Notes: generated by a model not told the origin, from the letters alone. 64,000 nucleotides of DNA from Legionellales bacterium (GCA_041660525.1 JBAZWD010000005.1:673-64672); one strand, 5' to 3'. Positions 27,919 to 32,216 are shown, counted from the first letter of the stretch. Made by a program: numbers and translations.

Positions 27919-30519
27919 TTATTTTCTAAACGTCTTATTTAGTGTATGCGTGGACTGATAATCATCGATGATGCTTAAACTAACATGATTGGGTGATTCA
28001 GGCTCATGTCCACTTTGTAAAAAATCAAAAGAAAAACTGTTAAGCAACGGAAGTGCTAAAATATCTAAAGTAATATTAGAATAATCTTTCCAATTTAAAG
28101 ATGACCCCTTAAAATGCTCAGATAGAATTAGTACAAACTTATCGTTGAATTTTTCATTCTTGGCTAAACATAGCCTATATTCACTCATAGCTGTCCTCCA
28201 ATGATTCTCTCCAAATTGTTTTTTTATAATAGGATAAGCTTTTTCTAGGCAAGTTACTCCTTTTTGAGTAAAGCCCTGTTTAATATAAAAAACACCAAGA
28301 CTATGATCGACAATTGCTGTACACCATCCGTTTTCAGTAAAGTGGCGACTTATTATATCTTTTGATTTCAATAATAAATTCTCCTGCATTACTTTATCGT
28401 CTTCATAAGTATTTGCTAAATCATGGTAATCAAAAGCAGTATACCAATGATCTTCTCCAAAATGACTTTTATTAATTCTTAAAGCTACCTTTAATAATTC
28501 TCTCTTGGCCTGCATGCCATCTAAATACCCCGTAGCATTAGCAAGTGCATGTATAGTGATAGTAATACGCCAATGCTCCTTCCCAAAATTTTCTTCATAT
28601 ATTTTAAGCGATTGGTTGAGACGGGTTTTCCCCTCATGAAAATTTCCAAGTTCATTATTTGCAATCCCTAAGTTGTGTAGTGTGCTTGCGATCGCCAATG
28701 TGTTTTCTGCAAATTTGTCTTCAGTAATAGCAAGACTTTTTTGCAAATATTCTTTTTGTGCCTTAGGATTACCTTTTGCACAACAAATATTACCGAGTTC
28801 ATCATATACCATTGCTACTCGCCAATCTTCTTCTCCAAAGCATTTTCGCAATATTTTCAATACTTCGTTAAATATTTTTTCTTGTTCATCAACTTTTCCT
28901 AAATCTCCAGAAGCAATGCCTAGATCATTTAGTGCAAGAGCTGTTCCCCAGTGGTTCTCACCAAGACTGTCTTTTGCAATATTCAATAAATTAATATAGT
29001 GTTTTTCTGCCTCTGCGGCTCTTCCACTTATCCGCATTTCTGTCACTGCTAATATTTTCAATAAATCATGAATTAATCCGACTGCACTTAATTTATGAGT
29101 GCTCATTGTTTTAAATGCCGGCTCTGCTGATAAATTAATCTCTATAAGATGCTTGCCCGGCTGACGATTGCCTAATGTTAAAGATTTATTATTTAAATTC
29201 AGATTTACCTGTACATTGTCCCATAAACTTTGAAAATGTATAGATAGATTTTTAATCGCATCATACCATGGTGCGGAATTGGTTTTAGATTCGTAGTAAT
29301 GATTTCTAAAATTAATAAGCAAGCCTGAAATTGTCTCTTCTTTATTTTCCAAAAAACAAATCCTGTATACTAACTGTGTTAAACGGTGCGTGGTTACACT
29401 TCTGTTTTCTTTATTATATTCCTCTTGCTTATTTCCAGTATAAATCAAGCCAAATTCGAACAAAGGACGTAGATACTTATCAAAATCTTCATCTGGATAT
29501 AAAACGTGAAAATATTTTTCTAAAAAATCTATTGGTATTTGAGTTGGGTGTAGAAATGAACATGCTTCCATAATGCTTAATGTTTTCTGATAATTGTTGA
29601 CGGATTCTTTCAAAGAATCTACGCAGCCTTTTACTGTTAAAAATATATTTTTTTGATGTGGATCATCAGCTGGCATTGAGATATTAAGATATGATTTAGA
29701 ATTTTTCTGAAAGTTTTTGATATATTTATTCGGCGTCATTCCAACACCTTCTTTGATAGCGTGTGCAGCTTGAGTCAGAGCTAATGGGAAGCCATCAAGA
29801 ATCGTGTTTAATTGATTGGCCTCCTCTTCAGTGATATCTTTTCCAATATAATTTGATAAATATTTCACTCCTTCATCAGGAGAAAATGGTTCTAATGTTA
29901 TTTTTAAGTACCCATCTGGCGCTCCCGTTGAATCACGAGAAGTGATAAGGGTATGCCATATTTTGGAAATATTAATCTCGCGCAGAGCAGACGTATAAGG
30001 AACAACATCTTTCAGCTGATTCACATTGTCAAAAACTAATAAACAAGGAGTTAATCCTAACAGAGACATTCTCTCATATATATTTTTTATAATAACAGAG
30101 ATCTCTGGAGCTAGTTGGACTTCATGATAAAGAAGTCCGAGCTTTTCTGCTAATTTTTTCCATTCTGCATTGATATCAACATCTGCGTCTATCCAAATAA
30201 CAGCTTTATATGTTTCATTATCTAGCGCGTCATTAGCAAATTTAAGAGCTAATTGTGTCTTCCCAATACCCCCTAATCCAATAATTCGCTGTGCTATTAC
30301 AGTAGTGTGATTTTCTTTAAAATTATCTCTTAATTTAACTAAGTCATTTACCCGTCCTTCAAAATGTTCTCTAGGCTTAATAAGCTGCCATCGAGATATT
30401 TCAGCAATGTTTATTGATGACGGAAAAATAGATGCTTGTGCAGCTAATACATTGGTCTGATTACTGTTTGCAAGTGCACTTGAAGTCGAGTCGTCTGTTA
30501 ATTCTTTTTTTTTAAAGTA
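27919..30519 (-). CDS. NB-ARC NTPase – TPR-repeat protein; frame is open upstream of the first ATG (30069) up to 30519 and contains the P-loop. Likely the 3' portion of a gene split from 30498-32216
   Basis: In-frame translation of 30300-30070 gives IIGLGGIGKTQLALKFA (Walker A) with no ATG before ERMSLLG. Then LLVFDNV (Walker B), ITSR and GFPLAL follow. There are at least 7 TPR units (e.g. WGTALALNDLGIASGDLG..., LAIASTLHNLGIANNELG...). Confidence 0.65.
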   Translation of the reverse strand, partial: YFKKKELTDDSTSSALANSNQTNVLAAQASIFPSSINIAEISRWQLIKPREHFEGRVNDLVKLRDNFKENHTTVIAQRIIGLGGIGKTQLALKFANDALDNETYKAVIWIDADVDINAEWKKLAEKLGLLYHEVQLAPEISVIIKNIYERMSLLGLTPCLLVFDNVNQLKDVVPYTSALREINISKIWHTLITSRDSTGAPDGYLKITLEPFSPDEGVKYLSNYIGKDITEEEANQLNTILDGFPLALTQAAHAIKEGVGMTPNKYIKNFQKNSKSYLNISMPADDPHQKNIFLTVKGCVDSLKESVNNYQKTLSIMEACSFLHPTQIPIDFLEKYFHVLYPDEDFDKYLRPLFEFGLIYTGNKQEEYNKENRSVTTHRLTQLVYRICFLENKEETISGLLINFRNHYYESKTNSAPWYDAIKNLSIHFQSLWDNVQVNLNLNNKSLTLGNRQPGKHLIEINLSAEPAFKTMSTHKLSAVGLIHDLLKILAVTEMRISGRAAEAEKHYINLLNIAKDSLGENHWGTALALNDLGIASGDLGKVDEQEKIFNEVLKILRKCFGEEDWRVAMVYDELGNICCAKGNPKAQKEYLQKSLAITEDKFAENTLAIASTLHNLGIANNELGNFHEGKTRLNQSLKIYEENFGKEHWRITITIHALANATGYLDGMQAKRELLKVALRINKSHFGEDHWYTAFDYHDLANTYEDDKVMQENLLLKSKDIISRHFTENGWCTAIVDHSLGVFYIKQGFTQKGVTCLEKAYPIIKKQFGENHWRTAMSEYRLCLAKNEKFNDKFVLILSEHFKGSSLNWKDYSNITLDILALPLLNSFSFDFLQSGHEPESPNHVSLSIIDDYQSTHTLNKTFRK

Positions 30520-32216
30520 TTATTCGTATCAGTGGTATGTTGAGATTCTGTAATAGTGAGTTTAAATTCACCATCGTTGATTGGGGTAACATAGTCAGGA
30601 TCACTCGTTTTAAGATGAGTCTCAAAAGTTGTCTCCTTGTTTCCTGGATGACCATCTTGCAAGAATTTTTGCATGGTCGGATTATTTAATGCTGCTATAG
30701 GCATGGTTATATCAACTTTTCCTCTCGTCATCGCAGCTCTTACGGAGGGATCTGCATAAAGTATATGATGCGTGCTAGCAGTACTGCTACTCTGTGCAGC
30801 TTTCTGTAGCAATCCATCAAATAAGTCAAAACTTTCTTTAAAAAAATTGGGACATAAAAGTTCAACATGCAATAAGTAATGCGCTAAATTTTCTTGATTT
30901 TTTGCCTTTAGTATTTTTACCGTTGATTGTGGAATATTTTCAAATTGCAACTGTTCTAACAACATAGGTAGTTGTGTCTGCCCTTTTTTTGAAAAATTCA
31001 TATGTAACAAGTCAATCCCAGCCTTCCCTGCTACTTGTATGACGTTGTTATAGTAATTTAAAAAAGTAATTGTTTCGTTTTGAAACATAGAAGTTTTAAT
31101 CACATAAACATTTTCTTTTGCTGGCAAATAGTTCGCATCGTATTCTAATTGATAAGCCTGTTCAAGATCTAATACGCCTACATGTATATTTGTTGTTTGA
31201 ATTCTATCCGCTAAGGTATCAAAACTTTTCAGCTCACGATTGTCAGTCTTAAACACATAATCTTTGAGCAAACCTAAAATACCTATAGCCGTTAAAGAAC
31301 GCTTACTCCCATCCTGCCATACAGTTACTGGCCAGGAATGCATTTTTTTAACTCGTTTAGCTCGCCCAGTTTGTGCATTAAATTGCGCAAGCAATTCAGT
31401 CATATCATGGGTTTCTTCAGTGTAGCGAATTAAATCTTTTAAGCCTAAAGTTGTAGGACTTAAAATAGCATCTTTCACACTATAGCTTTTCGCAGGCTTA
31501 AAATCAAAACGACATTGATATACTGTACCTAGATGTCGATTAGCAGTATTAATCATATTAGGTGCAGATACATAGTTGGTGATATTTAGTTCATCCAGAT
31601 TAACTAAAGGTTGAAGATTAGGGGAAATGTTTTCCAGCATACGTGCAGCACCTGGGCTTTCAAAAGCAACTGTTTTTGCGTGCACAGTTTTAAGTTCTTG
31701 TTTTTTAATTGCTTCATAAATATGGAATAAAGCTATTTGTGAGAGCCAGCCACCTAATGAATGGCCAACGGACGTAACGCTAATATGAGCACCTTCAAAT
31801 TCTTTCAATGTTGTTAGTACAAATTCTTTTGCTGCCACCATTTGACTGCCCGGATGACCTCTGACAATACTCATCATATCCATGCTAATATCATTACTTT
31901 GTGATCGCTCTGTACCGCGATGTGCGATTACTAAATGCCTGTTTTCTGCATGCCAATAAACCGCGGCATCATAGCCACTTTCTTTATCGCTGCCCACTCT
32001 GAGCAACTGCCAGCCTTGCAATAATTGATGCATACCAAAATCTTTCTCATAAACAACGTGAGAGAAATAAGCACAGACATAATCACTAGGGTAAATAAAA
32101 AATTGACCATAAGTAGTGGATTCTTGTTGTTTGCGTGCGTTTAAAGCTTCTAGCGCATTGCCTCTTGCTTGATGAAGTCTGATCTCAAAGCCATAATTTG
32201 TTATAATTAGAGGCAT
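30498..32216 (-). CDS. α/β-hydrolase (lipase-like, GHSLGG) domain protein, paralogous to the N-terminus of the 2191-aa NACHT protein; likely the N-terminal part of a split lipase–NB-ARC–TPR gene
   Basis: YWHAENRHLVIAHRGTE, VGHSLGGWLSQIAL, ESPGAARML and YVSAPNMINTANRHLGTVYQC are collinear with VAHRGIE, AGHSLGGWLAEL, LDSPGAKD and YLSSPNLINSCNLHLGSLY in 15709-22284. Confidence 0.65.
   Translation of the reverse strand: MPLIITNYGFEIRLHQARGNALEALNARKQQESTTYGQFFIYPSDYVCAYFSHVVYEKDFGMHQLLQGWQLLRVGSDKESGYDAAVYWHAENRHLVIAHRGTERSQSNDISMDMMSIVRGHPGSQMVAAKEFVLTTLKEFEGAHISVTSVGHSLGGWLSQIALFHIYEAIKKQELKTVHAKTVAFESPGAARMLENISPNLQPLVNLDELNITNYVSAPNMINTANRHLGTVYQCRFDFKPAKSYSVKDAILSPTTLGLKDLIRYTEETHDMTELLAQFNAQTGRAKRVKKMHSWPVTVWQDGSKRSLTAIGILGLLKDYVFKTDNRELKSFDTLADRIQTTNIHVGVLDLEQAYQLEYDANYLPAKENVYVIKTSMFQNETITFLNYYNNVIQVAGKAGIDLLHMNFSKKGQTQLPMLLEQLQFENIPQSTVKILKAKNQENLAHYLLHVELLCPNFFKESFDLFDGLLQKAAQSSSTASTHHILYADPSVRAAMTRGKVDITMPIAALNNPTMQKFLQDGHPGNKETTFETHLKTSDPDYVTPINDGEFKLTITESQHTTDTNNTLKKKN
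30505..30513. repeat. T9 (A9 on the coding strand) homopolymer at the junction of the two ORFs
   Basis: The upstream ORF ends ...TLKKKN* through the A-run. The downstream frame reads KKKELTDDSTS.... A +1 A (A10) would fuse them into one ~1430-aa lipase–NB-ARC–TPR protein. Confidence 0.8.

Follow-up and report, generated by a model that had tools for sequence, protein, structure and literature searches.

The stretch of DNA analysed here, 64,000 nucleotides from a Legionellales bacterium (GCA_041660525.1 JBAZWD010000005.1:673-64672; hereafter the window), contains between positions 27919 and 32216 a lipase-like open reading frame (ORF) that is followed in the -1 frame by a second long frame encoding an NB-ARC domain and TPR repeats. 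The evidence supports the view that both belong to one gene for a protein with an effector, a STAND NTPase and repeats, and that this gene is split exactly at a homopolymer of nine adenines (A9). The explanation that we favour, and to which we give about an even chance of being right, is that a single base has genuinely and recently been lost from a formerly continuous lipase–NB-ARC–TPR gene, and that the resulting split is probably leaky through slippage at the run. All features of the gene lie on the minus strand and are given in coordinates of the window.

The upstream ORF (30498-32216, including the TAA stop at 30498-30500) encodes 572 amino acids, which comprise the lipase-like part and a linker. 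It terminates in ...TDTNNTLKKKN*, represents the sole product under standard decoding, and is identical to NCBI MFA6037478.1, which is annotated as 'DUF6792 domain-containing protein [Legionellales bacterium]'. The downstream frame (27919-30519) consists of 866 codons and a stop (27919-27921), and codes for the NB-ARC domain and then for TPRs of the kinesin light chain type. The zone in which the two can be joined is bounded by the final -1-frame stop 5' of the junction, a TAA at 30520-30522, and by the upstream stop, which lies 4 nt past A9; the two open frames share 19 nt only (30501-30519). The A9 run (30505-30513, T9 on the plus strand) is situated inside this overlap and is the sole site where both frames can be joined. 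The preliminary description had placed the meeting point of the frames in this T9 and had predicted that one extra A/T would give a protein of about 1430 residues; indeed, addition of one A (A10) results in a single ORF that we computed at 1432 amino acids, and removal of one A leads to a dead end of 584 amino acids. The heptamer A_AAA_AAG (30504-30510) is found there in phase with the upstream ORF (zero frame), in the context TTA AAA AAA AAG AAT TAA, and a -1 tandem slip on it would give ...LKKK-ELTDD..., which is also what the A10 version encodes. There are five A9/T9 runs in the 64 kb, and based on these counts we estimate the chance of an A9 within the joining zone at about 4e-4. In its present form, the locus does not encode effector, NTPase and sensor as one polypeptide, for which A10 or a -1 shift is needed.

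Several observations connect the two frames. A codon-usage log-likelihood, for which the remaining long ORFs of the window served as training set, stays positive in the upstream frame as far as about 30595; in the -1 frame it is positive from about 30415 on, where the coding signal includes the 150 codons ahead of the first ATG. The coding frame thus switches at the A run, which supports one gene. In an exhaustive phmmer search against 1.84 billion cluster representatives, the NB-ARC part has 1031 relatives at E<=1e-10, and all of the 149 best align from a query position of at most 79 (median 46), that is, 5' of both the Walker A motif and the ATG. More than 100 amino acids precede the NB-ARC domain in 88 of these 149, almost none in 38, and in the top matches the chain also bears an enzymatic N-terminal domain, of the AMP-binding or the DUF294 nucleotidyltransferase type. 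A search with the fused protein, which did not return the window's own ORFs and was not used to conclude on the absence of near-identical variants, showed that the lipase family is elsewhere mostly fused to NACHT-ankyrin modules. A distant homolog of both halves is P0002, a metagenomic protein of 881 amino acids that is encoded by a single ORF and is colinear with both (29% identity over 416 amino acids of the lipase part, 28% over 305 of the NB-ARC part). Both halves also look undecayed, as 866 codons stay open at 34% GC and the NB-ARC motifs and the lipase invariants are intact.

The downstream part is a STAND NTPase of the NB-ARC clade with a C-terminal TPR array. In Pfam searches it is recognized as NB-ARC with 27.9 bits (cutoff 23.5), TPR_12 with 101 bits and TPR_10 with 79 bits, and its repeats resemble the TPRs of kinesin light chains (E 1e-10). 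The NB-ARC motif set is complete, with a Walker A motif or P-loop GLGGIGKT (30256-30279), a Walker B motif CLLVFDNV (30022-30045), a sensor-1 (TSR, within LITSRD) and a GxP motif in GFPLAL (29776-29793). The frame is open well ahead of its first ATG, as had been noted before: Walker A occupies codons 81-88, and the first 150 codons contain no ATG, GTG or TTG at all, the first of these being the ATG at codon 151 (30067-30069), between Walker A and Walker B. A conventionally started product would therefore lack the P-loop, and as no canonical start precedes it, a functional NTPase-TPR protein would be obtainable solely as a fusion. The 150-codon stretch is the longest start-free one in the window, yet it is not significant by its length, since among 581 gaps about 1.1 of this kind would be expected. 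Shine-Dalgarno-like motifs were sought before the ATT at 30429 and the other near-cognate candidates, and none was found; a scan for promoters and terminators in the region joining the two parts yielded no more than chance would. The public annotations conflict on this part: JGI, like an ORF-finder call, begins a protein of 716 amino acids without P-loop at the ATG at 30069, and NCBI begins an 836-residue 'TPR protein' (MFA6037477.1) at an ATT, codon 31 of the frame (30427-30429). Neither of the two annotations flags a frameshift. The tryptic peptide ELTDDSTSSALANSNQTNVLAAQASIFPSSINIAEISR is located 5' of all canonical starts and covers the ATT used by NCBI, and it would thus be diagnostic of the fusion.

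For the upstream ORF, the earlier reading as an alpha/beta-hydrolase with a GHSLGG motif holds. Pfam assigns DUF6792 with 34 bits (cutoff 25) and, marginally below its cutoff, Mbeg1-like, and both of these families belong to the alpha/beta-hydrolase clan (PMC11878206). A search of PDB sequences with the ORF gave no match. In an AlphaFold model that was built with 30 family members, residues of about 40-296 reach predicted local distance difference test (pLDDT) values of 70-92, and Foldseek relates this fold with a probability of 1.0 to feruloyl esterase A, the Rhizomucor lipase and a type VI secretion system (T6SS) lipase effector, with template modelling (TM) scores of about 0.5 relative to the target. 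Pfam, AlphaFold, Foldseek and the family alignment together delimit a class-3-lipase-like domain at 31329-32099. The protein retains all 24 columns that are invariant in an alignment of 30 family sequences, among them the HRGT motif (31911-31928), Asp113, the GHSLG of the nucleophile elbow (GHSLGG, residues 151-156, 31749-31766, invariant across the alignment), the PG and PN..N motifs and His270 (31401-31415). Of a Ser-Asp-His triad, Ser153 and His270 are invariant. Its acid would most likely be residue 211, which is Asn here and, as part of an LDIT motif, Asp in 40 of 46 family members; the few distant members lack this Asp as well. Asn211 may therefore weaken catalysis of the predicted lipase, and the invariant Asp113 could substitute. 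The conserved LDIT(S/T)Y motif at this place (31572-31592, residues 209-215) resembles the catalytic-Asp region of class 3 lipases. From about residue 460 to 572 (30501-30839) the pLDDT drops below 50, so that the A9 run falls in a probably disordered interdomain linker, which ends in the Lys run.

The window forms part of a 164.5-kb contig of a metagenome-assembled genome (MAG), which owes its label Legionellales to the name of the NCBI record and whose proteins in this region are NCBI MFA6037475-78 and which is also present in JGI/IMG. A Logan contig from SRR18595301 with a length of 12,342 bp is 100% identical to positions 23149-35490, A9 included, and another Logan contig of the same run covers 58-60 kb of the window. 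None of the 17 other A/T runs of at least eight in the window (four A9 and 13 A8/T8) breaks a frame; they are placed in intact ORFs or between genes, with the four in-frame A9 runs at 1505-1513, 10858-10866, 17594-17602 and 22259-22267. The identity over 12,342 bp with the same A9, together with the 17 harmless runs, makes a simple assembly error unlikely. The two assemblies are independent, and we infer that they were probably built from shared reads, which excludes a quirk of one assembler, not a systematic read error.

The favoured explanation would take the following course. The original gene would have encoded a STAND ('NLR-like') protein of 1432 amino acids, in which a disordered linker separates the lipase-like effector from the NB-ARC switch and the TPR sensor. 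A deletion by replication slippage would recently have shortened A10 to A9 within the linker, and the A9 allele would now be fixed or dominant in the sampled population, not being a selected recoding signal. Standard decoding would then yield the lipase-plus-linker protein of 572 amino acids only, and some full-length protein would arise, probably at a low rate, whenever RNA polymerase inserts an additional A or a ribosome shifts by -1. STAND and NLR proteins generally bind a ligand through their repeats, here of the TPR type, whereupon nucleotide exchange drives oligomerisation and the N-terminal effector is activated by proximity. By analogy, the full-length protein would bind a ligand with its TPRs, oligomerise in an NTP-dependent manner and then activate the lipase.

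The leaky part of this proposal comes from two properties of the run that go beyond the preliminary description, namely that it is a slip site for RNA polymerase and that it holds a zero-frame heptamer of the type known from dnaX and insertion sequences (IS). Runs of nine adenines make many bacterial RNA polymerases slip, by which disrupted ORFs are restored in the mRNA, and frameshifted genes that are rescued in this way have been termed 'pseudo-pseudogenes' (Baranov et al. 2005, PMC1088944). The locus shows the arrangement described there for transcriptional slippage, with a run of at least nine in the overlap of two ORFs that are fused by one additional nucleotide (PMC1088944). A_AAA_AAG is the -1 heptamer of dnaX and IS elements (PMC1851650), and it conforms here to X_XXY_YYZ in the zero-frame phase, with the zero-frame stop two codons on. 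As these are known slip sites, some full-length protein is probably still made, and by analogy with the published cases, a split at A9 need not be a null allele.

A number of points weigh against this explanation. The fused protein has no relative among the GTDB species representatives, and the NB-ARC-TPR part has none among the JGI metagenome contigs; the 90% clusters hold this contig only, and the nearest non-self relative of the NB-ARC part among the 1.84 billion representatives is 31% identical. Neither an ortholog nor a sister strain was thus found in GTDB, JGI, the 90% clusters or the 50% representatives, which leaves the ancestral tract length and the recency of the loss as inferences. 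The assemblies come from one population, in which tract lengths may be mixed. If the platform of SRR18595301 is prone to homopolymer errors, both assemblies would share the error. The intact 2.6-kb downstream frame would be equally expected for a selected, slippage-expressed gene, and the intactness of both halves fits a very recent mutation as well as continued selection. Finally, the coding sequence contains 5-6 A9 runs, compared with 7.6 +/- 1.7 in synonymous shuffles, which is neither avoidance nor excess (not significant, with the low power of 64 kb). If the argument that Baranov et al. make about AT-rich genomes (PMC1088944) is applied here, runs that are not depleted could mean that the polymerase of this organism slips little, which would weaken the leaky part of the proposal.

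As an alternative to a one-way loss, the run could act as a phase-variable contingency locus, in which reversible slipped-strand mispairing would alternate between an OFF state (A9, lipase only) and an ON state (A10, full protein) and so place a costly or suicidal STAND system under stochastic control. The tract is a coding one in a tolerant, disordered linker and is one step from ON, both halves are intact, and the neighbouring lipase-NACHT gene possesses an in-frame A9 in the equivalent linker (residue 629) and another one 8 codons before its stop. However, no tract-length polymorphism is seen in the two identical assemblies of the one population, just one of the 18 long runs in the 64-kb window is out of frame, and 9-nt A/T runs are no commoner than in synonymous shuffles, so that nothing points to a contingency strategy across the genome. 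A literature search found no report of phase-variable STAND/NLR genes, and one for SRR18595301 gave nothing relevant. We think that this alternative is unlikely. The preliminary description had left phase variation, recent inactivation and a sequencing error side by side; the error has become the least likely of the three through the A9 in Logan and the 17 harmless runs, and the first two are inseparable unless reads or sister genomes are available.

Apparent frameshifts arise most often from errors of one base in homopolymers, and the true genome could accordingly have A10, with a miscall that both assemblies inherited from the same reads. This would agree with the apparent origin of all three records (MAG, JGI and Logan) in one sample. 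Against it, two assemblers agree over 12,342 bp that include three runs of at least eight, one frame-breaking run out of 18 argues against data prone to homopolymer errors, and the exact A10 product is absent from a collection of 15 billion proteins, which together leave an artefact quite improbable.

It could also be proposed that A9 and A_AAA_AAG are kept by selection, so that slippage or -1 frameshifting yields a fixed ratio of the free lipase-linker protein to the full-length one. The run is long enough for slippage of bacterial RNA polymerases (PMC1088944), the heptamer is perfect, in the zero frame and followed by a stop two codons later, the downstream frame is wholly intact, and a precedent exists in tssM, for which both products are needed (PMC4256274). 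Nonetheless, GGAG or AGGA was sought up to 20 nt upstream of the heptamer and not found, and folding of 60-131 nt around and after the site gave no RNA stimulator, the downstream 60-85 nt folding even worse than shuffled sequences (z = +1.4). The lack of stimulators on either side argues against an evolved signal of the dnaX/IS type. In addition, the arrangement occurs in no homolog, as the sole two-domain homolog, like every lipase-NACHT relative, is encoded by one ORF, no selection on A9 runs is visible in this sample, and it is not obvious what a lone effector domain would do in a STAND system. Taken together, we regard a selected recoding signal as rather doubtful. As the normal bias of this genome, AAA makes up 83% of the Lys codons. 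A tRNA-Lys(UUU) (47267-47340) is the sole RNA gene found in the window, and whether the genome also has a tRNA-Lys(CUU) would bear on the shiftiness of A_AAA_AAG.

Two genuine genes, a lone lipase and a lone NB-ARC-TPR protein started at a non-canonical codon (ATT 30429) or by reinitiation, are very unlikely, for although NCBI and JGI both annotate two, although the 38 of the 149 nearest relatives that are almost without N-terminal extension demonstrate that effector-less NB-ARC-TPR proteins exist, and although the homology of the relatives begins around codon 46 and hence 3' of the ATT at codon 31, the frame has neither an ATG, GTG or TTG nor a Shine-Dalgarno-like motif before the near-cognate candidates, its coding signal reaches right to the A run, the 19-nt overlap coincides precisely with the slippery run (p ~4e-4), and the lipase family is elsewhere fused to STAND NTPases.

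More broadly, A9 might be a maintained switch, either phase-variable or set to a fixed rate of slippage, through which an intracellular member of the Legionellales gates an NLR-like protein that is armed with a lipase and potentially suicidal; we consider this conceivable, on the whole not probable, and the intact downstream frame is the single piece of positive evidence for a slippage-gated expression of this kind. Should it be true, the locus would be the first slippage-controlled bacterial STAND/NLR immune-type gene, and the neighbouring lipase-NACHT gene would possess a second switch, currently ON, in the A9 that lies in frame in its equivalent linker. A maintained switch would also imply that a homopolymer allows bacteria to keep the expression of an NLR-like effector system low or stochastic, which bears on the tolerance of costly systems of the abortive-infection type. 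With the favoured mutation, the locus would instead be a case of ordinary early gene decay in a host-associated bacterium, and its lesson would mainly be one for annotation. In either case, a lipase–NB-ARC–TPR architecture is documented in the Legionellales that has no close relative among about 15 billion public proteins. Both ingredients are already known, the modular STAND protein with an enzymatic effector as well as the frameshift at a slippery A run, and this is not a new mechanism.

The split gene is the last of three adjoining STAND genes between 15709 and 32216, the other two being a Lipase_3-NACHT-HEAT gene (15709-22284, plus strand) and an HTH_3-nSTAND gene (23360-27367, plus strand). 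The first of these encodes the 2191-residue protein that had been described as an intact paralog of the fused architecture. It has the same type of N-terminal lipase, but Pfam places its NTPase in the NACHT clade and its repeats in the HEAT family, not NB-ARC and TPR, and it is homologous to the split gene over the lipase only (27% over 314 amino acids, E 4e-26); judged by its sequence, it is thus a protein with the same kind of architecture and not a full-length paralog. This gene contains an in-frame A9 at 17594-17602 (residue 629, in the lipase-NACHT linker), an A8 at residue 1267 and an A9 at 22259-22267, 8 codons before the stop, and these runs could be latent slippage sites or plain Lys-codon bias. 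When the three STAND genes were compared with PADLOC, no catalogued defence system was matched; for the split gene, the PADLOC 2.0 models returned a generic 'TPR' only (E 5e-7), and its lipase and NB-ARC parts were unmatched.

Elsewhere in the window, ankyrin-repeat proteins are encoded at 535-5502 (one of 1655 amino acids), 11705-12262 and 12878-13423, and large ORFs without Pfam match are found at 9000-10592, 34358-36208 and 53476-58212. Ankyrin proteins amid such ORFs are typical of an intracellular, eukaryote-associated bacterium, and in such an ankyrin-rich, probably intracellular organism the role of the split gene could be related to phages or to the host. Two same-strand ORFans at 9000-11455 (530 and 301 amino acids) overlap by 43 nt without a homopolymer, and the second holds the in-frame A9 at 10858-10866. 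A partial match to an IS66 family transposase at 42078-43322 stays below threshold (115 bits versus a cutoff of 180, profile positions 221-384) and is possibly a degraded IS. A conserved miaB-phoH-ybeY-corC cluster is present at 59440-63053. None of the GTDB species representatives returned for its MiaB exceeds 72% identity, and they are spread over many gammaproteobacterial orders, indicating a lineage without close sequenced relative.

Among known systems, the 'pseudo-pseudogenes' (PMC1088944) are similar in that two overlapping ORFs derive from one ancestral gene, the overlap contains nine A, one non-templated A restores the frame and the homologs are single ORFs. They differ in that several of them had a wild-type allele in a sister strain; here, the organism is AT-rich and slippage is predicted. 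Citrobacter rodentium tssM1 (A11; PMC4256274) and Shigella mxiE (T9; via PMC1088944) are likewise comparable. A premature stop closely follows the homopolymer in both (for tssM, the A11 stands just before it), the fusion depends on an insertion by RNA polymerase, and stimulators are lacking, for tssM both a Shine-Dalgarno sequence and a hairpin. The two layouts are described as conserved in related species and both products as shown to be needed, whereas the split gene is known from one sequence alone. With the frameshifting of dnaX and of IS3 and IS1, the locus shares the identical heptamer in the zero-frame phase and a fusion of the ORF-A/ORF-B type, but the stimulators of those systems, a Shine-Dalgarno-like sequence about 10 nt upstream and a stem-loop or pseudoknot 5-6 nt downstream, are missing.

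On the protein level, the upstream part is linked to class 3 lipases, feruloyl esterase A and T6SS effectors of the Tle type by the match in fold, the GHSLGG motif and the invariant His, while its identity to them is just 10-16%, Asn211 stands in place of Asp, and a lipase activity is predicted. Bacterial STAND/NLR-like proteins such as Avs and bNACHT are reportedly composed of an N-terminal effector, a central NTPase and C-terminal repeats. The split gene departs from the Avs and bNACHT types in that it has no specific match in PADLOC and that its host is a probable intracellular, ankyrin-rich member of the Legionellales; it agrees with them in the tripartite architecture, the NB-ARC domain with its full motif set, the TPR sensor, the enzymatic N-terminal domain and the position next to two more STAND genes.

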